A DNA stretch of 64,000 nucleotides from NCBI GenBank assembly GCA_016709225.1, contig JADJEE010000012.1:2371630-2435629 (forward strand). The letters run 5' to 3'. The translations under genes were made by a program, and so were the position numbers. Of this stretch, positions 6,057 to 55,559 are shown piece after piece. Position 1 is the stretch's first letter; every line of letters starts with the position of its first letter. The stretch is from Deltaproteobacteria bacterium (GTDB lineage Bacteria > Myxococcota_A > Polyangia > Nannocystales > Nannocystaceae). The notes beneath the pieces are model-generated. The model searched no databases, was not told the origin of the DNA, and saw only the letters and a list, made by a program, of their open reading frames with translations.

Positions 6057-7757
6057 TCAATCGAAGCGGCTGCCGATGCGCAGGGTCCAGGACCCCAGCA
6101 CGCCGGTGTTGCCGGCGACCGCATCGACCACGCGCAGGGTCCACTCGCCGTTGACCGACTCGTCGCCCGAGAAGCCCACCGGCGCGGCGTGGAAGCGGAA
6201 CAGATCGGCCTGGTCCTGTGCCACGAGCACCTCGTTGCCCGCGGGATTGGTGAGGGTGACGCGGAGGTCCTGCGGGTTGGCGTGGTCGATCTGCAGGTCG
6301 ATCTCGACGTCCATGTCGACGGTCGCGAGGCCGTAGACGAGCAGCGAGCGCGACAGCCCCTGCGCGTCGCCGTCGGGGATCGCGACGTCGAGTGAGGTCT
6401 CGAAGCTGCCGTCGGCGAAGTTGCCGACCATCCACGCCGGCAGGCACAGGCCCTCGTCGCCGCGGGTGAGTCCGGCGCACATCAGACCCTGACCGAGGTC
6501 GCACGGGGCCGATGCACTGCACTCGGTCTGCTCACCGAAGCCCGCGAGCAGGGTGCAGCGGCCCACGTTCGAGGCCTCGGAGCTGCCGACGCAGGTGCCC
6601 TCGGCACAGTCCGCGTTCGAGCTGCAATCCTGGCCCTGCGAGCCGACGCCGGCGCTGCAGCGCTCGATCTCGCCGTCGCTGATCACGGCGACGCGCTCGG
6701 CAGCGTCGAGCGGGAAGTAGGCGCCGACCGAGGTGTCGCCGGCGCCGAACTCGTAGACCACGTACGCGCGCGCGCTGGTGCGGTCCCACAGCTCGGTGCG
6801 GTTGATCTCGCCCTCGTCGGCGCGGGAGAACGCGTCGTCGACATCGGTCACGTCGGTGTGGGCCGAGCTGCGTACTGCCTCGACGACCTGCGCGCGCTGC
6901 AGCTCGCTCAGGCCAGCGGGCGATTGCAGCCGCACGCGCGGGCCGCTGACGACGTCGTGGGAGCTGCGCAGGTCGTGATACTGGTCCCCGAACACGCACT
7001 GCACGGCGAACGGCGACAGCTCGTCGAAGCATGCTGGGCCCATCTCCTGCGCGAAGGCCTCGAAGCCCGCCGCACAGAAGGCCGCCGGCATCGGCGCCTC
7101 GCACAGGCGATCGAACACCGGCCCGAGCGCCTCGCCATCGGTGCAGATCGCGAGCGCCTCGGCGGGGGTGAGATCGGGGCTCTCGGGATCGGCGGCCGAG
7201 TCGGCGACCTGCGCGTTCATGCAGGCGAGGATGTTGTTGGCGACGGTCTCGTCACAGCCGGCGGGCGCCGGGGGCAGCGGCGCGCAGTCACCGTTCTCGC
7301 AGGTCGACGACAGGCGATAGGCCCCGCGACCCCGCGCGTCGTGGGTGCCGACCACCACGAGGTACTCGCCGGCAGCGAGCGTGAGGCCGGTGATGCGGGA
7401 CTGTCGACCCCAGCCCGCGTCGTCGTCGAAGGCGATCGCGGTGTCGCCGAAGGCCTCGCCCTGGCGGGGGCCGAACACGAACAGCGTGGTGTCGAGCGCC
7501 TTCGCGGTGCCCTGTCGCGTGATCTCGATGCGCACGCGTGCGCCCTCGCGGACCGAGAGGTGATAGCCGTGGAACTCGAGGTCCTCGGTGAAGCGACCGG
7601 TGCGGGCGGCCTCGAGCTCGAGCGTGCCGAGGTCCTCGACGTGATCGATGGCGTCGCCTTTGCCATCGCCCAGCTCGGGGATCACGGCGTCGCTGCGATC
7701 GTCGGCGCTGCAGGCAAACAGGGAAACGGCGGCGAGTGCGGTGATGGAGGCGCGCAT
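6057..7757 (-). CDS. Secreted lipoprotein with N-terminal pre-peptidase C-terminal (PPC)-like domain, Cys-rich central region and C-terminal proprotein-convertase P-domain; no recognisable subtilase catalytic motifs
   Basis: Starts at M93 of track ORF 6057..8033 (MRASITALAAVSLFACSADD, lipobox). PPC-like GYHLSVREGARVRIEITRQG…LFVFGP. C-terminal P-domain pattern …DVAIPDGDAQGLSRSLLV…VDMDVEIDLQIDHANPQDLRVTLTNPAGNEVLV…WTLRVVD. No D-T-G, H-G-T or G-T-S-M-A blocks seen. Confidence 0.8.
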   Translation of the reverse strand: MRASITALAAVSLFACSADDRSDAVIPELGDGKGDAIDHVEDLGTLELEAARTGRFTEDLEFHGYHLSVREGARVRIEITRQGTAKALDTTLFVFGPRQGEAFGDTAIAFDDDAGWGRQSRITGLTLAAGEYLVVVGTHDARGRGAYRLSSTCENGDCAPLPPAPAGCDETVANNILACMNAQVADSAADPESPDLTPAEALAICTDGEALGPVFDRLCEAPMPAAFCAAGFEAFAQEMGPACFDELSPFAVQCVFGDQYHDLRSSHDVVSGPRVRLQSPAGLSELQRAQVVEAVRSSAHTDVTDVDDAFSRADEGEINRTELWDRTSARAYVVYEFGAGDTSVGAYFPLDAAERVAVISDGEIERCSAGVGSQGQDCSSNADCAEGTCVGSSEASNVGRCTLLAGFGEQTECSASAPCDLGQGLMCAGLTRGDEGLCLPAWMVGNFADGSFETSLDVAIPDGDAQGLSRSLLVYGLATVDMDVEIDLQIDHANPQDLRVTLTNPAGNEVLVAQDQADLFRFHAAPVGFSGDESVNGEWTLRVVDAVAGNTGVLGSWTLRIGSRFD

Positions 7758-8008
7758 GTCGAGCTCGACCGGCCGCTGTGCAACCTCGGCGCCGCGGTCT
7801 GTCACGGACCCGCACGCGGGATCTCGGGGGCTTTCGCTGGACGCGTGACTCCGACGTGACCCACGCGGGCCGGCCCGGCCGGCCGTGGCCACGAGAGTCG
7901 CCACCCCACCCGAGCGGCCGCCAGGGGCCCGCCCGAGGCCGTCGCGCACATGGGCGGCGCTGCCACGGATCGATTTGGCCGCGGGTTGCACGTGCAGGTC
8001 GAGACCCC

Positions 8009-8557
8009 ATGACACGCGCCACGCATGTTCCATCGTTGCTGATCCTCACCGCGCTCGCGGGCGCATGCGCCTTCGAGTCCACCGCAACCGCGCATCGCGT
8101 GCCGGTGCCGGTGTTGGTCGGGCCAGTCGAGCAGATCGGCGGCGCACCGCGTCCGAGCAGCGCCGACGACGGCCCGCAATTCGACATCAAGGTCGATCGC
8201 ACGGTGACCGCCTCGAGCAGCTCGCAGACCAGCGGCAACGTCACCGTCACCACCACCACCGCGACCGCCTCCACCGCCGGTGCCGGCCTGGTCGACGCCC
8301 GCGTGCGACTGGCCGCCAACGGCGCCAAGAACCGCCTGGTCCGCGTCGACCAGCTGCGCGTGAACTCGTACAGCGGGTTCTTCTACTCGGCGGCGTGGAT
8401 CAGCAGCCGCGTGCGCATCAAGGGCCACGTCGGCCGCGATGTCGTGCTGCCGGATGCGCCCGCGCTCGCGCCGGGAATCGAATCGCCGCCGGGTGACACC
8501 ACGAACTCGAACGCGGCTGCAACGACGACACCCGCTGCGAACTCCAACCTGCGCTGA
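8009..8557 (+). CDS. Small lipoprotein (first of three consecutive small lipoprotein genes)
   Basis: Starts at M78 of track ORF 7778..8557: MTRATHVPSLLILTALAGACAFEST (lipobox). 182 aa, T/S-rich. The C-terminal SAAWISSRVRIKGHVG block resembles a block in the next gene. Confidence 0.65.
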   Translation: MTRATHVPSLLILTALAGACAFESTATAHRVPVPVLVGPVEQIGGAPRPSSADDGPQFDIKVDRTVTASSSSQTSGNVTVTTTTATASTAGAGLVDARVRLAANGAKNRLVRVDQLRVNSYSGFFYSAAWISSRVRIKGHVGRDVVLPDAPALAPGIESPPGDTTNSNAAATTTPAANSNLR

Positions 8558-8574
8558 CACCAAGGCCCCGGACC

Positions 8575-9090
8575 ATGACCCGCCGCATCTGTGCTCTCAC
8601 GTCGATCTCCTGCGTCGTCCTCGCGCTCCTCGATGGCTGCGCCGGAGGACGCTCCAACCTCCGCTTCGACGACACGCGCTACCCCGTGTCGCTGTCGCCG
8701 ACGGTGCTCGGCTCCGACGGCGTCGTGTTGTTGCCCGCACGCCGCGAGGTCGTCGGCAAGCTCGAGATCGAGACCAAGGTCTACGGCCTGCTGTGGGCAG
8801 CGGTGCCGCTGACGCCCAACAAAGATCTCTCGACACAGGTCAACGATCAGATCGAGCGCGCCGGCGGTCAGGCGGTCGTGAACCTGCGCGTCACCAGCCG
8901 GCAGTGCGGCCTCAACAGCGCGTGGGTGCTGAGCACGGTGCCGCTGTGGCCGGGGTGCAGCAAGGTCTTCGTGCAAGGCGACATCATCCGCGAGCGCGCG
9001 CCCGAGGCCGTGGTCGAGATCGAAGCGCCGCCCAGCGAACCCGCGGCCAGCGAACCGATCGCGCACGCCCACCCCATGACCCTGCCGTGA
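8575..9090 (+). CDS. Small lipoprotein
   Basis: MTRRICALTSISCVVLALLDGCAGG lipobox. 171 aa. …NSAWVLSTVPLWPGCSKVFVQGDII. 17 bp after the previous gene. Confidence 0.7.
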   Translation: MTRRICALTSISCVVLALLDGCAGGRSNLRFDDTRYPVSLSPTVLGSDGVVLLPARREVVGKLEIETKVYGLLWAAVPLTPNKDLSTQVNDQIERAGGQAVVNLRVTSRQCGLNSAWVLSTVPLWPGCSKVFVQGDIIRERAPEAVVEIEAPPSEPAASEPIAHAHPMTLP

Positions 9091-9110
9091 ACTCCGCGAG
9101 GAACTCCATC

Positions 9111-9491
9111 ATGAAGACGTTCGCATCTCTGCTCGCCACCTCGACCCTCATGCTCGCGTGCAAGCTGGCGCCACCGGCCCCGCCGTACCTCAGCACCGAG
9201 GAACTCGCCGTGGTCGTCGTGCGCCCCAGCCAGGACATGGCGATCCGCATCGCGCAGTACTGCGAGCCGGTCGCCGCGGTGACGGCCTTCGGCGACAACC
9301 ACCTGCGCCAGAACGCGCACACCCGCGGCGCCAACCTCGTCGAGGTGCTGTACGACGCCGGTGGCAGCACCGCGGTGCTACACAGCTGCCCGCTGGGCTT
9401 CGACGCCGGCGAGGGCACCTTCGAGAGCAACGACGCGGCCGCGCGCGGGTCCTCCTCGAGCGTGACCACCCAGACGGTGACGTTGCACTGA
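9111..9491 (+). CDS. Small lipoprotein
   Basis: Last 126 codons of track ORF 8439..9491: MKTFASLLATSTLMLACKLAPP (lipobox). The remainder of that ORF is R-rich junk overlapping the previous genes. Confidence 0.65.
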   Translation: MKTFASLLATSTLMLACKLAPPAPPYLSTEELAVVVVRPSQDMAIRIAQYCEPVAAVTAFGDNHLRQNAHTRGANLVEVLYDAGGSTAVLHSCPLGFDAGEGTFESNDAAARGSSSSVTTQTVTLH

Positions 9492-9582
9492 AAAGCGCTC
9501 CGCGCTCGGACGTTGGCGCGCACCCGGAGCCCGCATCGGGCCACGCACACCCGCGGCGATCATCGCAGATGAATGCGAGAGG

Positions 9583-10884
9583 ATGCCGCCGGCTCTCGAT
9601 CCCGACGCGCTCGCACTGCCGGTGCTGCAGGACCCTGCCTGCGCCGCCTACGTGCGCGAGCTGTTGCGCACGCGCTGGACCGACGGCCACGACGAAGACG
9701 CCGTGGCACGCGTGCAGGCCCGCATCGACGCACGCACGATCGTCTTCGTCGCCGTCCACCACGGCAACTTCCCCAGCCTCGAGTTCCTGGCGCCGGCGCT
9801 GCGCGAGCGCGGGCACACGACGCTGGCGATCTATCTGCAGGGCGACGCACACGGCGAGGGCTTCGACCACACCGAGTGCTGCGGTGGTTCGCTCTCGCGG
9901 CTGGCGGCGCTGCTGCGGTCACTGCCCGACGGCACCGCGATCTATCTGCAGGCCCATGCCCGCTGGGTGTGGCTCGGGCAGCTGGTCGCCGCGGTCGCAC
10001 CGCGACTGCGGCTGGTGCAGGAGATCTGGGACTGGATGGATCAGTTCGCGCCGGCCGCACGCGCGCAGGACTTCGTCGACGACGGCGTGTTCACCCACGC
10101 CGAGCTCGCGCTGATGCGTGGCGCCGAGGCGTGGGTGCGTGACCACGCGTATGCCGTCGTGCACAAGCACGGTGGGCGCGAGCAGCCGCCGTGGCCCACC
10201 GGCGCCGCGGCGCGCGAGTGTCGGATCATGCCGTGCCCGCCGCGCGCGTGGTCGCGGCCGCCGCTGCGCCGCGAGCCCGGCCCGTGGCGGATCGTACACG
10301 TGGGACAGATCAAGTCGCAGCACGCACCGGTGCGGGCGTTCGGCGACCTGCAGCTCGCATCGCTGTTCCAGCGCTGGACCCGTCAGGGCCTCTACGTGAG
10401 CGCGTACCCCGGGGTCGCACCGGCCGCCGATGCACTCGTCGACTACGAGGCGCTCGCGCGCCGCGATCGGGCCTTCGCGCTGCATCGACACCGCTCGATC
10501 GGTGAGCTGGTCGGCGCACTGCACGGGGCCCACGACTACGGCCTGCTGCTGTATCCGTTCCCGCGCGAGCTCGCGGTCGGTCGTGCGCACCTGCGTACGG
10601 CGCTCGCGAGCAAGCTGTTCACCTACGTCGCCGCCGGCCTGCCGGTGTTGGTGAGTCCGGAGCTGGCGTACATGGCCGAGCTGGTCGAGCACCACGGCAT
10701 CGGCCTGGTCGTCGAGGCGCGCGATCACGATCGGTTGCGCGAGCGCCTCGACGTCGTCGACTACCCGGCACTGCAGCGCGCAGTCCGGGCCGCGCAGTCC
10801 GAGTTCCACATCGAGCGCTTCGTCCCCGCGCTGGTCGAGCTGCTCACCGCCTGCGGACCCGTCGCCGCCGAAACACCACCATGA
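9583..10884 (+). CDS. Glycosyltransferase, GT-B fold (GT1/GT4-like C-terminal domain)
   Basis: ATG at 9583 with a GAGAGG SD. C-terminal half has the Glycos_transf_1 pattern …HVGQI…RAFALHRHRSIGELVGALHGAHDYGLLLYPF…ASKLFTYVAAGLPVLVS…GIGLVVEARDHDRL. Its stop overlaps the next start (ATGA at 10881). Confidence 0.8.
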   Translation: MPPALDPDALALPVLQDPACAAYVRELLRTRWTDGHDEDAVARVQARIDARTIVFVAVHHGNFPSLEFLAPALRERGHTTLAIYLQGDAHGEGFDHTECCGGSLSRLAALLRSLPDGTAIYLQAHARWVWLGQLVAAVAPRLRLVQEIWDWMDQFAPAARAQDFVDDGVFTHAELALMRGAEAWVRDHAYAVVHKHGGREQPPWPTGAAARECRIMPCPPRAWSRPPLRREPGPWRIVHVGQIKSQHAPVRAFGDLQLASLFQRWTRQGLYVSAYPGVAPAADALVDYEALARRDRAFALHRHRSIGELVGALHGAHDYGLLLYPFPRELAVGRAHLRTALASKLFTYVAAGLPVLVSPELAYMAELVEHHGIGLVVEARDHDRLRERLDVVDYPALQRAVRAAQSEFHIERFVPALVELLTACGPVAAETPP

Positions 10885-12062
10885 CCGCTCGTCGACCGCA
10901 ACGCATCGCGATCGCGCTGCCCCGCGACAATGACTTCTACCGCGCCCTCGCTGCGCAGATGTGCCGCGGCTTCGAGGCGTGCGGCCTCGAGGCCACCAGC
11001 GTGCTGCGTCTGCTCGCCGCGGACGACATGCGGGACTTCTGCGCCAGCGTGCGCCCCGACGTGTTGCTCGAGATGAACCGCTCGCGCGCGATGGCGGAGT
11101 TCGTGCCCGACGACGTCGTGCACCTGACGTGGGTCGTCGACCTCGGCGGTCGCGCGGTCGATGACTTCGCGGGCTCGGCGTACACGTATCTCTTCAGCGA
11201 CGCGTGGCTGCCCCACTTCACGCTCGACGCGCCGCATCGTTGGCTCGGCCCCGGCGCGTGCCCGCAGGACTACCCGCAACGCGCCCACACCTCGAACCAA
11301 CGCCTGGCGTTCCTCGGCCACATCCCGAATCCGTGGACCCCGGAGGAGCTCGCGCGCGACGTCACCGGCGGGGCTGGCGTGTGCGACTTCGGCAGTCTGC
11401 TGCCGGCGATCGAGCGGCTGCTGCGACCCGACGATCCGCACCAAGCGCTGCTCGGCGTCGAGGACTTCCTACGTCGCATCGACGGGGCCTGCTATGCGAT
11501 CGGCGGCCACCCCTTGGTGATCGACGACGCGCTCGCCTACGACATCACGTGCCGCGTGGTGCGGCACCTCAACCGCACCGAGCTGGCCGACGCGGCGCTC
11601 GCGATGGCATCGCGGCGCGGCCTGCAGGGCGACGCGCTCGCACGGTGGCTCGGAATCTGGGGCACGCCCAACTGGTCGCGGTGGCCTCGCTTCGCGCCGC
11701 ACTACCACGGCTGGCTCGCCACGCCGGCGCAGATGTCCGAGGTCTACACCGGCACGGAGATCGTGCTGCACGAGGGCACCGGCGTGCACTTTCGATCGAT
11801 GGATGCGATGAGCACCGGCGCGCTGGTGTCGTTCCGCGAGGGTGATCTCGGCAGCCATGTCGACGCGATCCACCTCGGCTTCGAGCCGCACGTGCACTTC
11901 GTGCCGTTCCACCTGCACGAGATCGACGACGCCCTCGCGCCGTACCTCGCCGACCCCGTGCGCGCGCAGGCCATGCGCGACGCCGCGGCCGCGCGCATCC
12001 GCGACGCCCACACCTGGCGCCACCGCGCGCAGGGAATCCTCGACGACCTCGCGAGCCTGTGA
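10881..12062 (+). CDS. CgeB-like / GT1-related glycosyltransferase-family protein
   Basis: 393 aa. C-terminal …TGTEIVLHEGTGVHFRSMDAMSTGALVSFREGDLGSHVDAIHLGFEPHVHFVPFHLHEIDDALAPYLADPVRAQAMRDAAAARIRDAHTWRHRAQGIL resembles spore-maturation CgeB / Glyco_trans_1_2 family C-termini. Translationally coupled to the genes on either side. Confidence 0.7.
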   Translation: MTARRPQRIAIALPRDNDFYRALAAQMCRGFEACGLEATSVLRLLAADDMRDFCASVRPDVLLEMNRSRAMAEFVPDDVVHLTWVVDLGGRAVDDFAGSAYTYLFSDAWLPHFTLDAPHRWLGPGACPQDYPQRAHTSNQRLAFLGHIPNPWTPEELARDVTGGAGVCDFGSLLPAIERLLRPDDPHQALLGVEDFLRRIDGACYAIGGHPLVIDDALAYDITCRVVRHLNRTELADAALAMASRRGLQGDALARWLGIWGTPNWSRWPRFAPHYHGWLATPAQMSEVYTGTEIVLHEGTGVHFRSMDAMSTGALVSFREGDLGSHVDAIHLGFEPHVHFVPFHLHEIDDALAPYLADPVRAQAMRDAAAARIRDAHTWRHRAQGILDDLASL

Positions 12063-46704: not shown

Positions 46705-48285
46705 TCAGCGACGCACGCGGCGACGAGCGGCCCATGCACCGAGCACGAGCAGCGCCCACGCCGGGGAGCCGAAGCGTGCGCCGGGATCGACCGCACACGA
46801 CTGCTCGCCCTCGACCCCGCGACCCCACACGTCGCCGCCACCGATGCCGTCGTTGGCGTCGGGGTCGACGCCCGCGGCCTGCTCGTCGATCCGGGTCAGA
46901 CGGATCGCGTCGAACACCACGCGCCGACCGAGCGAGTTGGACTCACCGGTGGCATCGGCGAGCGTCAGCGAGCCCCCGCTGCCGCCGTCGAAGTTGAACG
47001 TGCCCAGCGACACCCAGCCGTTCTTCGTCGACTGGTTCATCACCACGGTCGCGAGTCCACCGGCGTGCTGGAGCTTGTACTTGGCCTGCTTGCTGGTGTT
47101 GTTCGGCGTCGGCACGTTGGCCTCGACGCGGTACGTGCCGGCCTCGGCGAAGTCGAACAGCACCTCGGCGTAGTTGGTGACCGTGGTCTTGGTGGTGCCG
47201 GTCCACACCGAGTCACCGCCCTGACCGCCCTGGACCTTGCGCCACCACTGCGAGGGCCCGTGGAAGACGTAGCAGGCGTCGCCGTCGTCGATGGTGCCGC
47301 CGTCGGCCGCGATCAGACCGCAGCTGGGACAGTCGGCCGCGCAGGTGCTGCTGTCCTCGCTGCCACCGCAGGTGCCGTCGCCACAGCTGTCGCCGTTGCC
47401 ACCCCAGGCCAGCAGCGCCTCGAGATCGCCGTTGAAACGGTTGGTGTCGGTGTTGCCGTTGACGCCGGCCGTCGAGCCGCTGTCGGTGTATTGGTGGAAG
47501 GTCCACTCGCTCCACTGCGACGGCAGGTTGGGGCAGCCGTTCGTATAGTGGGCGATCCACAGCGGGTAGTCGGCGAACGCGGACGACTTGACGTAGTCCT
47601 GCCAGAAGAAGCGGCCGGTGTAGATGATCGGCTTGACGCCGGTGGCCGCCTCGACGCGGTTGACCCACTTCGTCACCGCCGCCGCGACCGCGGTCGACGA
47701 CAGACCGCCATGGCTCTCGACGTCGATCACCGGCGGCAGGTCACCCGGCTGCAGCGGGCCCATGTGCTCGAGCAGCAGATCGGCCTGCGCCTCGGCGTTC
47801 TGGCCGGGCTCGAAGTACTGGTACACGCCGACCCGCAGACCCGCCGCGCGGGCCTTGGACCAGTTCGCGTCGAAGAACTGATCGAAGGTGTTGAGCCCGT
47901 GCGAGACGCGGACGAACGCGAACTCGACCCCGTCGTTGGCGACCGAGGTCCAGTTGACGTTGCCCTGCCACTTGGAGATGTCGATGCCCTTGACCGTGCC
48001 CCCGCTGGCGCACACCGAGGCGGCGCTGGGATCGATCTCGGTCGCGAGCTCGTCCGGTGAGCTCTGGCCGGCGGCCTCGACCTCGCCGGCGCGCAGGGCC
48101 GCCGCGAGCTCGTAGTCGCGCAGGCCGTCGCCCATGGCGCGGTCGTCGTCGGGGTGTGCCGGGGCGGCGGTGGCCGTCGCAGGCAGGCCCACGAGGGCCA
48201 GGGTGATGCCGAGGTTCAGGACGCTGGCCGCTACCGCGGCCCACACCGTGCGGCGCTCTCGCCCGATTCGAAGTCGCTCTCGCAT
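46705..48285 (-). CDS. GH25-family muramidase (lysozyme) with Cys-rich linker, C-terminal beta domain and MYXO-CTERM
   Basis: Signal peptide. GIDISKWQGNVNWTSVANDGVEFAFVRVSHG…VGVYQYFEP…PPVIDVES…KPIIYTG…YPLWIAHY…WTFHQYT is the GH25 signature. CGDGTCGG…CAADCPSCG linker. C-terminal …SCAVDPGARFGSPAWALLVLGAWAARRRVRR = MYXO-CTERM. Confidence 0.85.
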   Translation of the reverse strand: MRERLRIGRERRTVWAAVAASVLNLGITLALVGLPATATAAPAHPDDDRAMGDGLRDYELAAALRAGEVEAAGQSSPDELATEIDPSAASVCASGGTVKGIDISKWQGNVNWTSVANDGVEFAFVRVSHGLNTFDQFFDANWSKARAAGLRVGVYQYFEPGQNAEAQADLLLEHMGPLQPGDLPPVIDVESHGGLSSTAVAAAVTKWVNRVEAATGVKPIIYTGRFFWQDYVKSSAFADYPLWIAHYTNGCPNLPSQWSEWTFHQYTDSGSTAGVNGNTDTNRFNGDLEALLAWGGNGDSCGDGTCGGSEDSSTCAADCPSCGLIAADGGTIDDGDACYVFHGPSQWWRKVQGGQGGDSVWTGTTKTTVTNYAEVLFDFAEAGTYRVEANVPTPNNTSKQAKYKLQHAGGLATVVMNQSTKNGWVSLGTFNFDGGSGGSLTLADATGESNSLGRRVVFDAIRLTRIDEQAAGVDPDANDGIGGGDVWGRGVEGEQSCAVDPGARFGSPAWALLVLGAWAARRRVRR

Positions 48286-48449: not shown

Positions 48450-50090
48450 TCAGCCGCGGCGTCGCTGCACACGACGTCGGCGTGGCCACACGATTGGCAG
48501 CAGCAACCACCACGCCGACGCGCGTGCGTCGAGATCGCTGCGACAGCCACAACCGCCGGCGTCGTCGCCATCGGCGAAGCCCGGCGGCAGCGCACTGTCG
48601 TCGCCGCTGTCGACCCCACCGCTGCTGTCGCCGCTGGGCAGGCCCTCGGTGCCCTCGCTCGGCGACCCGTCATCGGTGTCGTCGCCCGCGGTCGGATCGG
48701 TGGTGCCGCCGGTGTCGTCGCTCGCGGGCGGATCGAGCCGCGTGAGCCGCACCGCGTCGTAGACCAGCTTGATCTCGCTGGCCGGCGGATCGCCGGTGTT
48801 GTCATCGAGCTCGATGGCCTGGTCGTGACCACCGGCCTCGAACACGAACTCGCCCAGCTGCGCCCAGCCATCGTCGGACGCGGCCGCTGCGACCTGATCG
48901 ACGATCATGTCGTTGCTGCCGCCGGCGTGGGTGATGTGGTAGCGGGCCCGCGTCGACATCGCGAACTCGGGCACGAGGTGGGCCTCGACGCGGTAGGTGC
49001 CGGCGTCGGCGAAGTGCAGCTCGATGCGACCGAAGTTCGACTTCGTGTCGTAGTCGGTGGCCATCGTCCACGCCAGATCGCCGCCTTCACCGACGCTCTC
49101 GTGACGCCAATACTCCTGCGGTCCGCCCAGCTGATAGCAGGCGTCGCCGTCGTCGATGGTGCCGCCCAGCGCATCGACGATGCCGCACGCGGTGCAGTCC
49201 TCCGGGCACACGTCGGCGTCCTCGTCACCGGTGCACTTGCCGTCGCCGCACACCGCGGGCGCGGCGAACAAGCCCGAGAGCGCGGTCAGATCGCCGTTGA
49301 AGTCGTTGCGATCGACGTCGCCGCTGATGCCCGCGACCGAGCCGCTGCTGGTGTACTGGTGGAAGTACCAGTCGTCCCACTGATCGGGGATGTTCGGGCA
49401 ATCGGTCGTGTAGTGGGCGATCCACAGCGGGTAGTCGGCGAACGCCGGCGACTGCACGTAGTCCTGCCAGAAGTAGCGACCGGTGTAGATGATCGGCTTC
49501 ACGCCGGTCGCGGCCTCGACGGTCGCGATCCACTGCGCCACTGCGTTCGCGACCTCGGCCGGCGGCAGGTTGCCGTGGCTCTCGACGTCGATCACCGGCG
49601 GCAGATCCTCGGGCCCGAGCGGGCCCATCATCTCGAGCATGATGTTGGCCTGCTCGACGGCATCCTGACCCGGCTCGAAGTACTGGTACACGCCGCCGTA
49701 GATGCCGGCCGCGCGCGACTCGGCCCAGTTCTCGTCGAAGAACTCGTCGATCGTGTTGATGCCGTGGGTCGCCCGCATGATCGCGTAGACGATTCCGGCG
49801 CCCGCGACCGAGTTCCAGTTGATCGAGCCCTGCCACTTCGAGACGTCGATGCCCGGCAGCGTGGTGCCGTCGGCACAGGTGGTCGCGGCGAAGGGGTCCT
49901 GCGGCGCGAGCAGCTCGTCGGCGCCGACGGCATCACCGGCGCGCTGCAGGCCCGCGCCCATCGTGCCCACCGGGCGCAGCTCGGCGGCCCCTGCGATCCC
50001 CGCGACCGTCATCGCCGACAGCGATGCGACTGCGGTCACACGCCCGACGCGACCCGCACGCCCCACTCGAAATCCCTGTCGCTCGCCCAT
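48450..50090 (-). CDS. GH25-family muramidase paralogue with same architecture and MYXO-CTERM
   Basis: Starts at M (complement of 50088-50090) within track ORF 48450..51617. GIDVSKWQGSINWNSVAGAGIVYAIMRATHG…VYQYFEPGQDAVEQANIML…PPVIDVESHG…KPIIYTGRYFWQDY…YPLWIAHYTTDCPNIPDQW…FHQYTSSG. CGDGKCTGDEDADVCPEDCTACG linker. …GCGCRSDLDARASAWWLLLPIVWPRRRRV tail. Confidence 0.85.
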   Translation of the reverse strand: MGERQGFRVGRAGRVGRVTAVASLSAMTVAGIAGAAELRPVGTMGAGLQRAGDAVGADELLAPQDPFAATTCADGTTLPGIDVSKWQGSINWNSVAGAGIVYAIMRATHGINTIDEFFDENWAESRAAGIYGGVYQYFEPGQDAVEQANIMLEMMGPLGPEDLPPVIDVESHGNLPPAEVANAVAQWIATVEAATGVKPIIYTGRYFWQDYVQSPAFADYPLWIAHYTTDCPNIPDQWDDWYFHQYTSSGSVAGISGDVDRNDFNGDLTALSGLFAAPAVCGDGKCTGDEDADVCPEDCTACGIVDALGGTIDDGDACYQLGGPQEYWRHESVGEGGDLAWTMATDYDTKSNFGRIELHFADAGTYRVEAHLVPEFAMSTRARYHITHAGGSNDMIVDQVAAAASDDGWAQLGEFVFEAGGHDQAIELDDNTGDPPASEIKLVYDAVRLTRLDPPASDDTGGTTDPTAGDDTDDGSPSEGTEGLPSGDSSGGVDSGDDSALPPGFADGDDAGGCGCRSDLDARASAWWLLLPIVWPRRRRVQRRRG

Positions 50091-50402: not shown

Positions 50403-50996
50403 ATGTTCGCGTCGTCTCGTCTGCGCGCCCGCTTCGTGGTCCCTGGCTTGTTCGGTCTCTCCCTCGCGGTCTCGGGCCTCGTGTTGCCCGTCGCCCACGC
50501 CGAGGACGACGACGTGATCGCGGCCGAAGACGAAGACGCGCCCAAGGACGCCGCGGCGATCAAGATCGAGCTCAAGCAGGAGAGCGGCAAGGTCCTCAAG
50601 TACGACGGCGCCGTGCTCGACTGGGGCGCCGACGGCAACGTCGAGTTCAAGGCCGACAACCACGTGCACGACGTCGCGCTGCGGGTCGATCGCGGCGAGG
50701 GCGAGGGCAAGACCATCCAGCTGACGGTCGGCTACACCCGCGATGGCAAGTCCATCATCGAAGACCACACGGTCTCGTCCGAGATCAAGAAGCGCGAGGT
50801 CATCCGCATCGAGGGTGGCATCGCGATCGCGATCACCGTGACGCCGAAGCCGAGCAAGGCCACGCCGCCGCCGGAGGAGACCAAGCCGAGCGAGAAGCCC
50901 GACGAGACGCCCGACGAGCCCAGCGAGCCGCCCGCGCCCAAGAAGCGCAAGATCGAGGGCGGCGACAGCGACGACCCGCTCGACGGCCTGCGCTGA
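50403..50996 (+). CDS. Small secreted Lys/Glu-rich protein with Pro/Glu/Lys-rich basic C-terminal tail
   Basis: Last 197 codons of track ORF 48429..50996 (the rest is antisense to the GH25 gene): MFASSRLRARFVVPGLFGLSLAVSGLVLPVAHA signal peptide, then a charged beta-rich domain (…KIELKQESGKVLKYDGAVLDWGADGNVEFKADNHVHDV…) and a PKPSKATPPPEETKPSEKPDETPDEPSEPPAPKKRKIEGG tail. Somewhat lower GC than the neighbours. Confidence 0.6.
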   Translation: MFASSRLRARFVVPGLFGLSLAVSGLVLPVAHAEDDDVIAAEDEDAPKDAAAIKIELKQESGKVLKYDGAVLDWGADGNVEFKADNHVHDVALRVDRGEGEGKTIQLTVGYTRDGKSIIEDHTVSSEIKKREVIRIEGGIAIAITVTPKPSKATPPPEETKPSEKPDETPDEPSEPPAPKKRKIEGGDSDDPLDGLR

Positions 50997-51065
50997 TCCA
51001 TCGGCCCCGCAACGCCAACGGGCTCGGCACCACACCCACGTGGTCCCGAGCCCGTCGTCGTTTTC

Positions 51066-51087
51066 GGTGCGTGCGTGCGTGCGTGCT
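51066..51087. repeat. Simple repeat (GTGC)5, alternating purine/pyrimidine
   Basis: ggtgcgtgcgtgcgtgcgtgc, read directly. Lies between the convergent ends of the small secreted protein gene and the Cys-rich lipoprotein gene. Confidence 0.8.
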
Positions 51088-52264
51088 ACCGGCCGGCGGC
51101 CTCGAGCTTGGCGAGCCGCTGCTCGAGACTGCCGAGCTCGCGCTGCAACGCCGCCTTGTCCTCGCGCAGCTGCTCGAGCTCGGCGTGTAGCGCCTGGATC
51201 GACGCCAGCGCGACACCATCGGCGTCGACCTGGAAGATGAGCCTGTCGGTCTTGCCCACGCCGAAGGCGGCGTGGAAGTCCTGCGCCATCGGGCCGATGT
51301 GCCGGATCGCCTCGTCCTCGAAGCGGTAGCTCCACGTCGTGATCGGCATCGCGAGCACACGCTCGAGCACGTTCTTCGGATCGACGGCCGCGAAGTTGTG
51401 CTTGCGATTGCGATCGCTGATCGGACACACCTGCCCGCAGAACTCCTGGCCGGGCTCGATCGGCACGCCGCCGCAACACTGCAGGTCTTCGCAGCAGGCT
51501 TCGCCCATCGCACAGCTCTCGCCGTCGCCGACGCACATCCCGCCGCAGACCTCGCCCAGATCGCACGCGGGCGGTTCGTCGCCGTTGGGGCACTGCCACA
51601 TGCCGTCGGCGCAGCACGACGCCGTGCCGATCAGGCAGAAGGGCATCGCGTCGGGGTCGCAGCAGCTCGGCGGCGGCGGACAGGGCTCGCCCTCGACGTC
51701 ACAGGCCCCCTGCTCGGGGCATGACCACTCGCCATTGCCGCAGCAGGAAGCCGGGCCGCCCATGCACGCCGGCGGATCGCCGACGCAGCACTGGGGCTGC
51801 TCGCACACGACGCCGACGTCGCAGGTCGGATTGCCACCCTCGTCGTTGCACGCCCACGTGCCGTCGACGCAGCAGCTCGATCCTTCGATGCACGGCGGCG
51901 CCTCTTCCGGCAAGCAGCACACGTCGGGACCCGTCGTGTTGCCGCCGCTGCTGCTGCTGCCGTCGCTGCTCCCGCTGCTGCTGCTGCCACCGCTGCTCCC
52001 GCTGCCACTGCTGCCACCGCTGCTGCTGCTGCCATCGGTGGTCGCCGTCGTCGTCGCGGTCGTGCCGGTGTCATCGGTCGTCGTCGCGGTGCTCGACGCC
52101 GAGGTGTCCGCGGTGGTCGCGGTCGTCGATGCGGTGGTCGAGGTCGAACCGCCCGAGGCCGAGCTCGAGCTCGAGCCCGAGGGATCGGTGTCGCCGGTGA
52201 CATCGTCACCACAACCCGCGACGAGACACGCCGACGCAAAACCAATGGAGATCAACTTGCGCAT
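51086..52264 (-). CDS. Cys-rich secreted lipoprotein with C-terminal Peptidase_S74-like (phage tail-spike/endosialidase intramolecular chaperone) domain
   Basis: Starts at M92 of track ORF 51086..52537 (MRKLISIGFASACLVAGCGDD lipobox). Long S/T/G linker. ~170 aa with >30 Cys in CC/CxxC arrangements. C-terminus …DRNRKHNFAAVDPKNVLERVLAMPITTWSYRFEDEAIRHIGPMAQDFHAAFGVGKTDRLIFQVDADGVALASIQALHAELEQLREDKAALQRELGSLEQRLAKLEAA matches the S74 chaperone-domain pattern (DKN…K…D…WxY…GxIAQD…DxxGV…ALxAEL-coiled coil). Confidence 0.75.
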   Translation of the reverse strand: MRKLISIGFASACLVAGCGDDVTGDTDPSGSSSSSASGGSTSTTASTTATTADTSASSTATTTDDTGTTATTTATTDGSSSSGGSSGSGSSGGSSSSGSSDGSSSSGGNTTGPDVCCLPEEAPPCIEGSSCCVDGTWACNDEGGNPTCDVGVVCEQPQCCVGDPPACMGGPASCCGNGEWSCPEQGACDVEGEPCPPPPSCCDPDAMPFCLIGTASCCADGMWQCPNGDEPPACDLGEVCGGMCVGDGESCAMGEACCEDLQCCGGVPIEPGQEFCGQVCPISDRNRKHNFAAVDPKNVLERVLAMPITTWSYRFEDEAIRHIGPMAQDFHAAFGVGKTDRLIFQVDADGVALASIQALHAELEQLREDKAALQRELGSLEQRLAKLEAAGR

Positions 52265-52591
52265 GGTCCACCAAGCCCTTCCCGGCCCGCGGATGAACGC
52301 CATCCACGAGGTCCGCTCGGGTGAACGGCCGCGACGCGGGCAATCCTTCGCCGAGGATTGCTCGCGCCTTGCGGGACCGGTCGGAACCGACGTCCGGTGG
52401 CATCGCGACCTGCCGTAAGGTGACGTCCCGACGGACGTGCACGTCGGTGCACAAGCGCGGACGTTGGCGGCGAGTGACGCGTGCCCGCGGCGTGCTAGGC
52501 TCGCTGCGGAGCGCCCGCGTTGGGGTGTTTCGAGCATCGGGTCCCATTGGGGGGCCGAGCAGGGCCGGACCGGCCAGGTGGGGTGGAGACG

Positions 52592-53947
52592 ATGGTCGCG
52601 ATGGATCTCGTGCGTGCAACCATGGTGGGTTTGGTCGTCGCATCGGCGTGCGGCGGTACCGGCGGCGGCGATGGCAGCGGTGACGGCTCCGGTGGTTCGT
52701 CATCGGCGTCGACGCACGGCGACGACAGCAGCGCCGGTGGTTCGTGCGTCGAGGGGTGTCCAGCCGGCAGCGATTGCGTCGACGGCACCTGCGTGCCCTG
52801 GTGCGACTGCGCCGATCCATGCAACTGCGGCTGTGCCGTGGCCGCGGACGACTGCCCGTCGATCGAGTGCTCCGTCGACGGTGACTGCGGCGAAGGCCAG
52901 GTCTGCCTCGACGGCCTGTGCAACCCGGCACCCCCGGACTGCGCGTCGCGTCCACAACCTGGCCCCGCGGAGCCGCTCGCGCTCGGCGAGGGCGACGGCG
53001 TCGTCACGGCGCTGGCCTTCGTCGAGATCGATGCCGGCGCGCCGCAGCTGCTCGTCGCGCGCGGCGACGCCGTGTTGGCCGCGAGCGACACCACCGTGAC
53101 ACCCCTGCTCACCGCCGGGCCGGTGCAGCGCCTCGCAGCCGCCGACCTCGACGGCGATGGCGTGGCCGAGCTCGCCGTCGCCGGCATCGCGCCGGCGCCG
53201 ACACTGCAGGTGTTCCGCCGCGATGCGGACGGCACCACGTGGACCGCCTTTCATGAAGACGCGCTCGGCGGGCACGCCATCGACGTGTTGGTCTTCGGCG
53301 ATCACGACGGTGACGGCATGATCGATCTGTTGGTGCAGACCGAAGCCGGTATCTCGTCGCTGCCGGGCCTCGGCGGCGGCGGTCTCGCGGACGCGGTCGC
53401 GCTGGGTGCCGCACAGGCGCAGGGCCGCATGGCCGCCGGCGATTTCGACGGCGACGGCAGCGTCGACCTCGCATATCCCGTGGCCATGGGCTACGGCATC
53501 ATCGTCGGCGGTGCGGGTGGCGAAGCCGGCCTCGAGGGGGTCGGTGCCGCCTCGCCGTCGGTCGGGATGTTCGCTGACGACTTCGACGGTGACGGCGTGG
53601 TCGATCTGCTCGACGTACGCGCCGACGCGAACCTGCGCCTGTGGGACCCCGCGTTCGGAAGCCGTGGCAACGCCGACGACTTCGATCTCACCGACGTCGT
53701 CCACGTCGGCGTCGCGCGCATCGACAGCAACGAACGGGCCGACGTGTTCGCGATCGCCTCCGACGGCTCGCTGGCGACGCGCTTCGGCTGGGACGTGCGC
53801 CCGGAACTCGAGCTGGTGCCGCTGGCGTGCGACGAGGTCGACGCCTCGCTGACGCCGCCCTCGGTCGTCGCGGTCGGACGCGACGCCGACGGGGTGCTGT
53901 GGCTCGCGACCAGCGATGGCAGCACGGTCGAGCGACGCCGCTGGTGA
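52592..53947 (+). CDS. FG-GAP/VCBS-repeat lipoprotein with Cys-rich N-terminal module
   Basis: MVAMDLVRATMVGLVVASACGG (lipobox; ATG 52592, alternatives 52601/52622). CVEGCPAGSDCVDGTCVPWCDCADPCNCGC… Cys-rich. Repeated DLDGDGVAEL / GDHDGDGMIDLL / GDFDGDGSVDL / DDFDGDGVVDLL FG-GAP calcium-binding motifs. Confidence 0.75.
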   Translation: MVAMDLVRATMVGLVVASACGGTGGGDGSGDGSGGSSSASTHGDDSSAGGSCVEGCPAGSDCVDGTCVPWCDCADPCNCGCAVAADDCPSIECSVDGDCGEGQVCLDGLCNPAPPDCASRPQPGPAEPLALGEGDGVVTALAFVEIDAGAPQLLVARGDAVLAASDTTVTPLLTAGPVQRLAAADLDGDGVAELAVAGIAPAPTLQVFRRDADGTTWTAFHEDALGGHAIDVLVFGDHDGDGMIDLLVQTEAGISSLPGLGGGGLADAVALGAAQAQGRMAAGDFDGDGSVDLAYPVAMGYGIIVGGAGGEAGLEGVGAASPSVGMFADDFDGDGVVDLLDVRADANLRLWDPAFGSRGNADDFDLTDVVHVGVARIDSNERADVFAIASDGSLATRFGWDVRPELELVPLACDEVDASLTPPSVVAVGRDADGVLWLATSDGSTVERRRW

Positions 53948-53976: not shown

Positions 53977-55212
53977 TCAGCGTGACAGTCGTGTGATGCC
54001 GGCCGGCAAGCTCGCGAACACCGAGCCGACATCGCCCGCGCGCGCGCTGCTCTGTCCGTCGCTGCCCGCTCGGCCGGGCTGGCCCGCGCTGCCCTCGGCG
54101 CCATCGATGCCGTGCTTGCCCGCCTTGCCGCCGCTGCCCTGGCCGTTGCCGCTGAAGCCACCGTCGCCCGCACGGCCCGCACGGCCGGCCTCACCCGCGC
54201 GACCGGCCGAGGCATCGAGCGCGATCATGCTCGCGAGCTCTGGCAGTGACGCGTCGTAGATCACCTCGAGCACACCGCCGTTGCCGCCGTTGCCACCGCT
54301 GCCTCCGTTGCCGCCGCGGCCACCATTGCCGCCGGTGCCACCGGGGTTGCCTCCGCCGCCGCTGCCTCCGCGACCACCATTGCCACCGGCACCACCATCA
54401 CCGCCGTCGCCCCCACCGGCGACGATCATCACCGGCTTCGAGGCGTCCATGAGCACGAGGTCGTCGACATCGCCCTCGATCTTCACGAGCACCATCCGAT
54501 CGTGGTGTGGCGTCTTCACGAGCGTGGCGTAGGCGGTGATGCGCGGCCCATCGGCACCGTCGCCGCCATTGCCACCGTCGCCACCGTCGTCGCCGATCGC
54601 ACCATCGGCACCCGGCGCGCTGTCACCTCCGCCGTCGCCAGACTTGCCCATCGAGCCTGTCGCACCACCGCGACCGCTGCTGCCGAACTCGCCGAACGAT
54701 CCAGCGTGGGTGATGCAGTCGTAGCTCGGCTCGAAGCGCAGGGTCGAAGGCGCGACCTTGCGCTCGCGGGGATAGCTCGCCGTGATGGTGAAGCCGCTCA
54801 GCTCGTTGGCGAGCATGTCGCTGCCCGGCACGAATGCGCCGGTCTCGAGATCGACCTCGCCGCCCTCGGCGGTGAACCCGAACTCCTCGAAGTCGAGCTT
54901 GCCGGCGTGCTTGCCCTCGTCGGCCAGCGACCAGGTCTCGAGCCGCTTGTGCTTGCCCTTGCGGCGCTTGTGCTGCGCGTCGGCGTACACCGCCAGCTGG
55001 ACGCCACCGCGGGCACAGATGCCCTTGGCGTCGCGCAGCCCCAGCGTGATCTTCGAGACCTCCCAGTGATCGAGCTTGGCGGCGTTCTTCTTCGCCGCAT
55101 CGACCACCATCGTGATGATGCTGCAGCCCGCCAGCGGAGCCGCGAGCGCGGTGACGAGGGACGCGGCGAGCAGCTTCGTGGGGAGCTTCGTTCGGAGCTT
55201 CGTTCGGTGCAT
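53977..55212 (-). CDS. Glycine-rich lipoprotein ((GGxGG)n / GNGG repeats)
   Basis: Starts at M52 of the track ORF (MHRTKLRTKLPTKLLAASLVTALAAPLAGCS lipobox). N-terminal globular part. Long GGDGGDGGAGGNGGRGGSGGGGNPGGTGGNGGRGGNGGSGGNGGNGG tract. Confidence 0.7.
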   Translation of the reverse strand: MHRTKLRTKLPTKLLAASLVTALAAPLAGCSIITMVVDAAKKNAAKLDHWEVSKITLGLRDAKGICARGGVQLAVYADAQHKRRKGKHKRLETWSLADEGKHAGKLDFEEFGFTAEGGEVDLETGAFVPGSDMLANELSGFTITASYPRERKVAPSTLRFEPSYDCITHAGSFGEFGSSGRGGATGSMGKSGDGGGDSAPGADGAIGDDGGDGGNGGDGADGPRITAYATLVKTPHHDRMVLVKIEGDVDDLVLMDASKPVMIVAGGGDGGDGGAGGNGGRGGSGGGGNPGGTGGNGGRGGNGGSGGNGGNGGVLEVIYDASLPELASMIALDASAGRAGEAGRAGRAGDGGFSGNGQGSGGKAGKHGIDGAEGSAGQPGRAGSDGQSSARAGDVGSVFASLPAGITRLSR

Positions 55213-55559
55213 GGCGGGGCCTCTTGGCGTCCCCTCGAGAGCAGGCGGTGTTCCAGGCCCGGGGAGTGCCCCGTGGAGAGCCGCGATACCCGTGGGATCG
55301 CGCAGGCTTGTGCGGCGCACGAAGGGCCCGGGCCGCGAGCTGGGTCGACGCGGATCGATCCGCACACGACCCCTGCGATGACCCGATCCGCGTCGCGGCG
55401 CGACCGCACCGCACCGCGGGCGGTGTCACGTTCGCCCATGGCGTCAGCGCACGATGGTCAGGCCGAACTCCCGCTCGATGCAGGGCGCGCGGGTGAGCGG
55501 GGGTTCGTCGCGACTGCAGAGCCCCGTGCCGCTGCTGGCGTGATAGCCTGTTGGTGCGA

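Follow-up and report, generated by a model that had tools for sequence, protein, structure and literature searches.

The 392-residue protein encoded on the minus strand at 52264..51086 of the window (the whole 64,000-nucleotide stretch of DNA analysed here) ends in a Peptidase_S74/ICA domain, and directly before the predicted cleavage serine of that domain it carries an invariant eight-cysteine module on a lipid tether. This arrangement defines a family of more than 110 clusters, most of them from Myxococcota, that is sizeable, coherent and uncharacterised. The gene is real and chromosomal and encodes a predicted membrane-anchored lipoprotein of myxobacterial type. With a probability of roughly 60%, we consider that the ICA domain drives trimerisation and cleaves the chain before S283, and that the product is a lipid-anchored, acidic cystine-knot trimer. 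Its architecture, that of a cystine-module lipoprotein, makes the locus a new variant among the chromosomal secreted proteins that end in S74, and it does not overturn current knowledge of these proteins. The features of the gene, in the order in which they are read on the minus strand, are as follows.

52211..52264, minus strand: signal peptide and lipobox, residues 1-18, MRKLISIGFASACLVAGC (read from the sequence)
51929..52210, minus strand: S/T/G/D low-complexity linker, residues 19-112 (from composition)
51545..51919, minus strand: three tandem CC repeats, residues 116-154, 159-195 and 201-240 (regular expression and self-comparison)
51419..51535, minus strand: fourth eight-cysteine module, residues 244-282, adjoining the predicted cleavage site (family alignments)
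51089..51418, minus strand: Peptidase_S74/ICA domain, residues 283-392, 110 aa (Pfam PF13884)
51401..51418, minus strand: predicted autocleavage centre S283-D-R-N-R-K288, SDxxxK (HMM and alignments)
51092..51232, minus strand: C-terminal long helix, residues 345-391 (AF2 pLDDT 90-98; heptads from the sequence)
51007..51067, minus strand: hairpin between convergent genes (RNA folding), terminator-like, with no T-run

Gene and transcription unit

The open reading frame runs from an ATG at 52264-52262 to a TAG at 51088-51086. A second in-frame ATG lies upstream at 52294 and would yield a protein of 402 aa (ten additional residues); the public protein P0001, which is 98% identical to the window protein, was called from the equivalent of this upstream ATG. 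Lookup returned no exact-sequence match for the window protein, and P0001 was used as its stand-in. Either start gives a signal peptide that closes in the lipobox L-V-A-G-C18. No second copy of the S74 domain or of the cysteine region was found elsewhere in the 64-kb window. The GC content around the gene is uniform, and the many spurious long open reading frames that overlap it are what a GC content of 70% would lead one to expect.

Upstream, an FG-GAP lipoprotein gene (52520-53947, plus strand) is divergent from the window gene, and downstream a gene for a 192-aa protein (50420-50996, plus strand) is convergent with it. RNA folding identified the hairpin between the two convergent genes at 19-79 nt past the stop codon, with a folding energy of -46.2 kcal/mol and a z-score of -3.6, and none of 200 shuffled sequences folded as well. 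Given the divergent gene on one side and the convergent gene and hairpin on the other, the window gene is most likely monocistronic. A consensus promoter and terminator scan did not flag the hairpin and returned no promoter; the two weak sites that it reported lie inside the neighbouring gene.

Lipobox, linker and mature part

A preliminary description of this DNA had read the N-terminal part of the protein as a lipobox and an S/T/G linker followed by a region with more than 30 cysteines, and this layout was borne out by VAGC with its cysteine at position 18, a linker of 94 residues and 32 cysteines. The VAGC tetrapeptide agrees with the lipobox pattern [LVI][ASTVI][GAS]C, and C18 is the residue predicted from this motif to be lipidated. 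Conservation was assessed in three family alignments of 20, 119 and 115 sequences (A1, A2 and A3, respectively). The lipobox cysteine is at least 90% conserved in A1, and a lipobox-like motif is present in 88 of 119 family sequences.

The linker consists largely of serine (32), threonine (24) and glycine (18), which together make up 74 of its 94 residues (79%), with nine aspartates, eight alanines and neither lysine nor arginine. It is presumed to serve as a flexible tether, and the linkers of homologues are alike in composition and variable in length. The mature part of the window protein is strongly acidic and free of K and R. Across the family, the body between the lipid cysteine and the catalytic serine holds 1.5 K+R and 15 D+E per 100 residues, and the ICA part holds 12.6 K+R per 100 residues. 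The scarcity of K and R, combined with the expected disulfides, suggests that the mature part may resist proteases, and K/R-poor, disulfide-rich mature products of this kind suggest an adaptation to a protease-rich exterior.

The C-terminal S74/ICA domain

The assignment of the C-terminal 110 aa to S74/ICA, which had already been proposed in the preliminary description, is solid. Pfam PF13884 matched residues 283-334 to positions 1-53 of its 58-position HMM at E=2.2e-11, with 44.3 bits against a gathering score of 22, and the homologues tested with Pfam gave the same result. Matches in PHROGs belonged to tail fibre and virion structural families. A tblastn search of 50,697 phage records found 24 that match at 35-45% identity, annotated as tail fibre or as 'chaperone of endosialidase'.

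The serine-lysine dyad was found at the expected site. S283 aligns with position 1 of the PF13884 HMM, and the scissile bond is predicted from the sequence to be I282|S283. Residues S283, D284 and K288 are invariant in all three alignments, and the +5 spacing of the dyad (S283/K288) equals that of MYRF (S578/K583) and of the SDxxxK motif of the MAT fibres considered below. The last 47 residues of the chain form one helix with an uninterrupted 3-4 heptad pattern from I356 to L387 (I356, L359, L363, L366, K370, L373, L377, L380, L384 and L387). This helix has coiled-coil matches in both Pfam and the PDB and is predicted to form a trimeric coiled coil, although the trimeric state itself is one that we infer.

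An AF2 model of residues 105-392, built with the 119-sequence alignment, reached a mean pLDDT of 89.4, and a core model of residues 236-392 reached a pLDDT of 90.2 with a pTM of 0.68. Comparison with the PDB by Foldseek placed the MyRF ICA domain (7dc3) first, with a probability of 1.00 and a TMt of 0.51-0.54, followed by the phage ICA domains 3gw6 and 3gud. A fold search of BFVD returned matches that were nearly all Peptidase S74/ICA proteins (best E=8e-5). The predicted fold of the window protein is thus an ICA fold with a terminal long helix. PDB searches by single sequence and by family profile returned coiled-coil or low-complexity matches only, with no ICA structures among them. The invariant dyad, the clean heptad helix and a model that matches MyRF and phage ICA domains before all others support the assignment.

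Cysteine modules

All 32 cysteines of the cysteine-rich region lie within residues 116-280, a span of 165 residues, and are organised as four modules of eight. The three tandem CC repeats follow the pattern CC-x7-C-x5-CC-x6-C-x6/8-C-x5-C, with eight cysteines each, and were modelled by AF2 with block-mean pLDDT values of 77-96. Neither Pfam nor NCBIfam has a model that matches them, the NCBIfam models for Cys-rich repeats of Myxococcus gave no match either, and the window protein as a whole is likewise without an NCBIfam model. The same CC repeat is found in other secreted proteins, where it occurs beside Kunitz, Kazal and Hint domains, and it is an undescribed eight-cysteine repeat common to bacteria and diatoms. 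The short cysteine spacings of the window protein are of the form C-x3-C; the CxxC motif mentioned in the preliminary description is absent.

The fourth module differs from the CC repeats and reads C-x6-C-x5-CC-x4-CC-GVPIEPGQEF-C-x3-CPI, with a pLDDT above 90. Its eight cysteines (C244, C251, C257, C258, C263, C264, C276 and C280), together with G266, P268, G272 and P281, are invariant in A1; in A2 and A3, each of these 12 residues is either invariant or conserved to at least 90%. The spacing C244-x6-C251-x5-C257C258-x4-C263-x12-C276 fits the ICK framework, for which we used C-x3-7-C-x3-6-CC-x1-4-C-x4-13-C with connectivity I-IV, II-V and III-VI. Comparisons of the module with ICK toxins gave non-significant matches (Foldseek E 0.5-3, profile E 0.13-0.8), and the local fold matches were weak, with a TMt of 0.69-0.75 over 38-40 residues at E 0.5-3. 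The ICK peptides that resemble it in this non-significant way (J-atracotoxin-Hv1c, purotoxin-1 and double-knot toxin) have a similar cysteine spacing and vicinal cysteine pairs, whereas the window module has eight cysteines and a second half (GVPVPPGxEY/F) that resembles the strand preceding S74 in other proteins (GVxLxPGxGSW). The resemblance of the fourth module to knottins, which is one of cysteine spacing, may therefore be taken only as a lead. It is also the sole basis for the word 'toxin' in the preliminary description, which we have not retained.

Family and spread of host-encoded S74 proteins

A homologue search with residues 113-392 returned 939 proteins at E<=1e-3, with named sources in Myxococcales, Nannocystaceae, Polyangiaceae, Enhygromyxa and Plesiocystis pacifica SIR-1. 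Almost all of the best 120 of these 939 hits have the eight-cysteine module, and these 120 come from Myxococcales, Nannocystaceae, Plesiocystis, Enhygromyxa and Nannocystis. The usual name given to homologues by PGAP is 'tail fiber domain-containing protein'. The fusion seen in the window recurs in Myxococcota, and Nannocystineae from the sea and from soil commonly have members of the family. Carriers that can be cultured include Plesiocystis pacifica SIR-1 (PPSIR1_41674), Enhygromyxa salina DSM 15201 and Nannocystis. Our literature search on S74 in myxobacteria or in lipoproteins found nothing relevant.

The commonest architecture in the family is a lipobox followed by an S/T/G-rich linker, the eight-cysteine module and the ICA domain. 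Among the 88 lipobox-bearing members, 38 have exactly eight cysteines in the body and 69 have an even number. Larger members add further cysteine modules, amongst them CC repeats, a 'CGPAPGAP' module and additional types, so that the window protein can be regarded as an expanded member of the family.

The S74 subtype of the window protein is far more widespread than this family. A scan of one genome per species for the motifs HIGPMAQD and DADGV found it in at least 564 species-level genomes, from phyla that include Verrucomicrobiota, Planctomycetota, Chloroflexota, Acidobacteriota, Gemmatimonadota and Bacteroidota. In those other phyla, the S74 proteins are long and secreted, and the stretch around the serine reads ...GVxLxPGxGSWSSxSDRNxKEN. 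An eight-cysteine module, ...CCxGVPVPPGxEY/FCxxxCPxSDRNxK, takes the place of GVxLxPGxGSW in 19 of the 80 loci of the genome-collection scan, and these 19 (L005-L022 and L024) are all Myxococcota-type or unclassified by record title. From this comparison of motifs, the second half of the eight-cysteine module would be the ordinary pre-S74 strand to which disulfides have been added. Other Cys-rich pre-S74 variants were seen at L036, L058, L069 and L082, and a Chloroflexia MAG (L070) encodes a Cys-rich S74 variant of 214 aa.

Host-encoded S74 proteins are therefore already documented and routinely annotated, and they are not exotic. The preliminary description had treated the borrowing of a phage folding device as unusual, a view that does not agree with the number of genomes given above or with the characterisation of such proteins in Bdellovibrio (PMC10769870). 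What is distinctive in the window protein is its body, in which cystine modules stand in place of a fibre.

Comparison with known systems

The chromosome of Bdellovibrio encodes 13 fibres of the MAT (mosaic adhesive trimer) type with a terminal S74 domain, and for Bd3182 self-cleavage at S782 was shown experimentally and was blocked by the substitution S782A (PMC10769870). MAT fibres such as Bd3182 and the window protein are alike in being chromosomal, secreted and non-phage, in their SDxxxK S74 end, in the combination of variable N-terminal modules with a constant C-terminal device, and in their occurrence in predatory bacteria. [quoted passage not shown] Neither the beta-rich domain nor the long fibre of the MAT family was found in it, and the S74 end is all that the two have in common.

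The ICA domains of phages (K1F endoNF, 3GW6; GA-1, 3GUD; T5 pb1) share with the window protein the Pfam family, the fold and the Ser-Lys dyad at the start of the domain. They chaperone a virion triple beta-helix or fibre, whereas the window gene has no phage context and no beta-helix, and its domain is short at 110 aa. The beta-helix or fibre body and the virion-gene context that characterise phage tail spikes and fibres are both missing. Thus, the surface 'fibre' of the preliminary description has no counterpart in the protein, the structured part of which consists of ~165 aa of small disulfide modules.

The best structural match is the ICA domain of MYRF/MrfA (7DC3), in which the domain is likewise reused outside virions and in a membrane-tethered protein. 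The MYRF dyad S578/K583 corresponds to the catalytic dyad of endosialidases; in MyRF, the coiled coil mainly drives trimerisation, and cleavage takes place in the trimer only. For S74/ICA domains in general, trimerisation via the C-terminal coiled coil is known to place Ser and Lys in position, and the bond ahead of the Ser is cut in the trimer only. In MYRF, the ICA domain is followed by the membrane anchor, and an N-terminal transcription factor is released. In the window protein, by contrast, the anchor is N-terminal, the ICA domain itself would be released, and no DNA-binding domain was detected with Pfam or NCBIfam, the chain ending with the ICA helix.

Proposed assembly and its alternatives

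In the assembly that we propose, the lipoprotein would be exported by Sec and would receive an acyl chain on C18. The ICA domains of three chains would then trimerise via their heptad helices, which would gather three adjacent eight-cysteine modules while the 32 cysteines of each chain oxidise in the periplasm. The S283/K288 dyad would cut I282|S283 only once the trimer is formed, and cleavage would free the 110-aa ICA chaperone. The mature product would be a lipid-anchored, acidic, K/R-free trimer with three S/T/G tethers bearing stacked cystine-knot-like modules, and its most likely location would be in or on the outer membrane. Nannocystineae are predators with poorly known surfaces, and as a guess, made by analogy with the tips of the Bdellovibrio MATs, the mature knot could be a protease-resistant surface module for binding, recognition or adhesion.

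The clients of the known ICA domains are triple beta-helices or fibres. The absence of such a client from the window protein is a point against the proposed assembly, and another comes from MyRF, where the ICA domain scarcely touches its stalk, so that the domain in the window protein may only trimerise and cleave and not chaperone the knot. Current understanding of the S74/ICA domain is that it chaperones triple beta-helices, and its placement immediately behind a cystine-rich module of 40 residues would broaden the range of structures that it can assemble. The family would also offer a compact system for studies of trimer-gated autoproteolysis.

The S74 domain could alternatively be a permanent trimeriser, with cleavage absent or inefficient and the full-length lipoprotein, held together by a distal coiled-coil trimer, as the functional form. 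This reading draws on the heptad helix being the best-conserved structural feature besides the dyad and on the role of the coiled coil as the chief driver of trimerisation in MyRF. However, in alignments of up to 119 sequences S283, D284 and K288 never change while the residues around them do, which is hard to explain without catalysis, and all tested SDxxxK domains cleave. We consequently regard a permanent trimeriser as unlikely.

A bolder form of the trimer-and-release proposal, which we offer as a doubtful speculation, is that the ICA domain here does not chaperone a fibre at all and is a single-use assembly-and-release device for a covalently disulfide-locked, knottin-like trimer on lipid tethers, and that in paralogues linked to ECF sigma factor genes the trimerisation-gated cleavage doubles as an envelope signalling step. 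If true, such a trimer would constitute a new class among bacterial surface structures, and the ECF-linked signalling cleavage would be a bacterial counterpart of the MYRF logic.

Genomic neighbourhood and homologue loci

The sole recurrent neighbourhood among 25 family loci was an ECF block, present at five of them (L004, L005, L006, L008 and L009). On one strand and in this order, the block encodes a secreted protein of 370 aa, an ECF sigma factor, a single-pass anti-sigma-like protein of 286 aa and the S74 lipoprotein. Within the best aligned segment, this lipoprotein is 53-57% identical to the window protein. At one homologue locus, genes for metal resistance lie a few kb off, outside the conserved block.

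The position of these five homologues, directly downstream of the sigma/anti-sigma-like genes and on the same strand, would suit a MYRF-like release switch in which cleavage is the signal and either the freed ICA trimer or the altered tethered part acts on an envelope sigma/anti-sigma pair. For the window protein we judge this improbable. The ECF block is missing from the 64 kb of the window and from most family loci, an adjacent ECF sigma factor is more simply understood as the regulator of that gene, and the ECF-linked proteins carry an extra N-terminal cysteine domain that the window protein does not have. No neighbours common to the window and the 25 family loci were found, and the genomic context gives no functional clue for the window copy.

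Beyond the convergent gene, at 1-4 kb from the window gene, lie two GH25+Golvesin_C genes (48450-50090 and 46705-48285, both on the minus strand), and the preliminary description had suggested that the window protein belongs to the same lytic arsenal. It could, for example, be a targeting subunit of these muramidases or a toxin delivered with them in predation, a proposal that would draw on this proximity, which is kept in the near-identical contigs L001-L003, and on the resemblance of the modules to knottins. The GH25 proteins match phage endolysin families in PHROGs, as any GH25 does. However, the plus-strand gene at 50420-50996 and the strong hairpin intervene, and the window gene and the GH25 genes are therefore not co-transcribed. 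In tblastn searches with the window neighbours, GH25, the FG-GAP protein and a Gly-rich protein were found, among the loci searched, only in L001-L003, beside the 98%-identical copies. None of the 85 further loci fetched has GH25, according to tblastn for 84 of them and to the called genes for L086; among the 85 are all 25 of the more distant Myxococcota-type family loci (24 covered by tblastn, with L086 as the 25th). Additionally, the closest distinct homologues, P0002 (60% identity), P0003 (57%), P0017 and P0019, are located among unrelated housekeeping genes. With GH25 confined to near-identical contigs and the homologues among unrelated genes, the lytic reading lacks comparative support, and we consider it very improbable.

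We would give slightly less credence still to a periplasmic thiolate metal binder, similar to metallothionein, in place of a disulfide-bonded protein. The 32 cysteines, the strong acidity and the metal-resistance genes at the one homologue locus could be cited for it, but those genes are outside the conserved block, the compartment to which the protein would be exported is oxidising, the number of cysteines per module is fixed and even, a compact fold was confidently predicted for each module, and histidine and methionine are not enriched.

The preliminary description was right that the gene is chromosomal with no phage genes nearby: none was detected within ~10 kb by Pfam on the neighbours or among the called genes of the near-identical contig L001, and capsid, terminase and tail genes are absent from the neighbours, where GH25 and FG-GAP genes sit with others of chromosomal type. 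The idea that the gene is the relic of a decayed prophage tail fibre, or a mis-called frame in GC-rich DNA, for which the 35-45% identity to phage homologues and the overlapping spurious frames might speak, is effectively refuted by the conservation of the family, with hundreds of homologues at identities down to ~40%, a conserved lipobox and invariant cysteines and dyad, in addition to confident AF2 models and flanks of uniform GC free of phage genes.

Cysteine-rich repeats and charge of the S74 lipoprotein

The three tandem 8-Cys units (CC repeats) of the 392-aa S74 lipoprotein, which ends in a Peptidase_S74/intramolecular chaperone (ICA) domain, follow the consensus CCDPxxEPxCxEGxxCCxDGxWxCNDxxGxxTC, for which no model was found in Pfam or NCBIfam.

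Window 51545-51919, (-): CC repeat region of the S74 lipoprotein, 8-Cys repeat, ~40 aa per unit

The repeat was seen again in just 37 representative clusters out of 1.84 billion, with up to nine copies per protein, and the domains fused to it in other proteins include Kunitz_BPTI, Kazal and Hint.

Public proteins listed with the CC repeat: P0121, P0123, P0124, P0126, P0131, P0133, P0137, P0163, P0165

Diatom proteins of Fragilaria crotonensis and Synedropsis also carry it, and altogether the CC repeat looks like an undescribed extracellular repeat common to bacteria and stramenopiles.

The part of the S74 lipoprotein predicted to remain after cleavage (residues 19-282; window 51419-52210) contains no Lys and no Arg and 38 Asp+Glu. 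Across the family alignment of 119 sequences, the mean K+R content per 100 aa was 1.5 in this predicted remainder, compared with 12.6 in the ICA domain.

The start of the S74 lipoprotein differs among public records of the cluster represented by P0001, a 98% identical protein (P0156, MBK6922661.1 and others). Annotated lengths in this cluster are 402, 404 and 405 aa, as opposed to an NCBI call of 225 aa in which signal peptide and linker are missing and the Cys region is truncated.

Genomic surroundings in the window

Two paralogous muramidases and two lipoprotein or lipoprotein-like genes flank the S74 gene.

Window 46705-48285, (-): GH25 muramidase fused to a Golvesin_C domain
Window 48450-50090, (-): paralogous GH25 muramidase, also fused to Golvesin_C
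Window 52520-53947, (+): FG-GAP-repeat lipoprotein, divergent neighbour of the S74 gene
Window 53977-55215, (-): Gly-rich lipoprotein-like protein, next gene past FG-GAP

Both muramidases end in a Cys, a hydrophobic stretch and an Arg-rich terminus. Because these tails give sub-threshold MYXO-CTERM matches (TIGR03901 at 17.8 bits, cut-off 20, plus a tail match to NF045523), both proteins are probably surface-sorted enzymes.

The FG-GAP lipoprotein has its own Cys-rich stretch at the N-terminus, and the Gly-rich protein shows GGxGG runs and a collagen-repeat match below threshold; the two genes are kept in near-identical contigs only. Window 51007-51085, (-), holds a (CACG)4-like run immediately 3' of the S74 stop codon and then, between the convergent genes, a long hairpin rich in GC (-46.2 kcal/mol, z=-3.6), which has no T-run and was therefore missed by the consensus terminator scan.

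S74 proteins in other loci

In five homologue loci (L004, L005, L006, L008 and L009), the S74 lipoprotein gene ends a conserved same-strand block. Ahead of it come the genes for an uncharacterised secreted protein of 370 aa, then for an ECF sigma factor and for a single-pass, anti-sigma-like protein of 286 aa; none of these three genes lies within the window.

L004 locus 7299-11260: ECF block

The S74 proteins linked to this block have one further Cys module, 'CGPAPGAP', at the N-terminus.

Outside Myxococcota, an uncultured Chloroflexia MAG (L070) encodes a short S74-domain protein (214 aa, 14 Cys) with a knottin-like module immediately ahead of ...CPISDRAKK, an occurrence that either arose independently, came by transfer or is an artefact of binning. 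The long secreted S74 proteins of loci L023-L084 (Verrucomicrobiota, Planctomycetota, Acidobacteriota and others) have two motifs in common, one N-terminal and directly after the signal peptide (..AQGTAFTYQGRL..) and the other at the predicted cleavage site, leading up to it (NQFxARAxGGxxFYS...GVxLxPGxGSWSSxSDRNxKEN). These long proteins may be fibres like the S74-terminated mosaic adhesive trimers (MAT) of Bdellovibrio.
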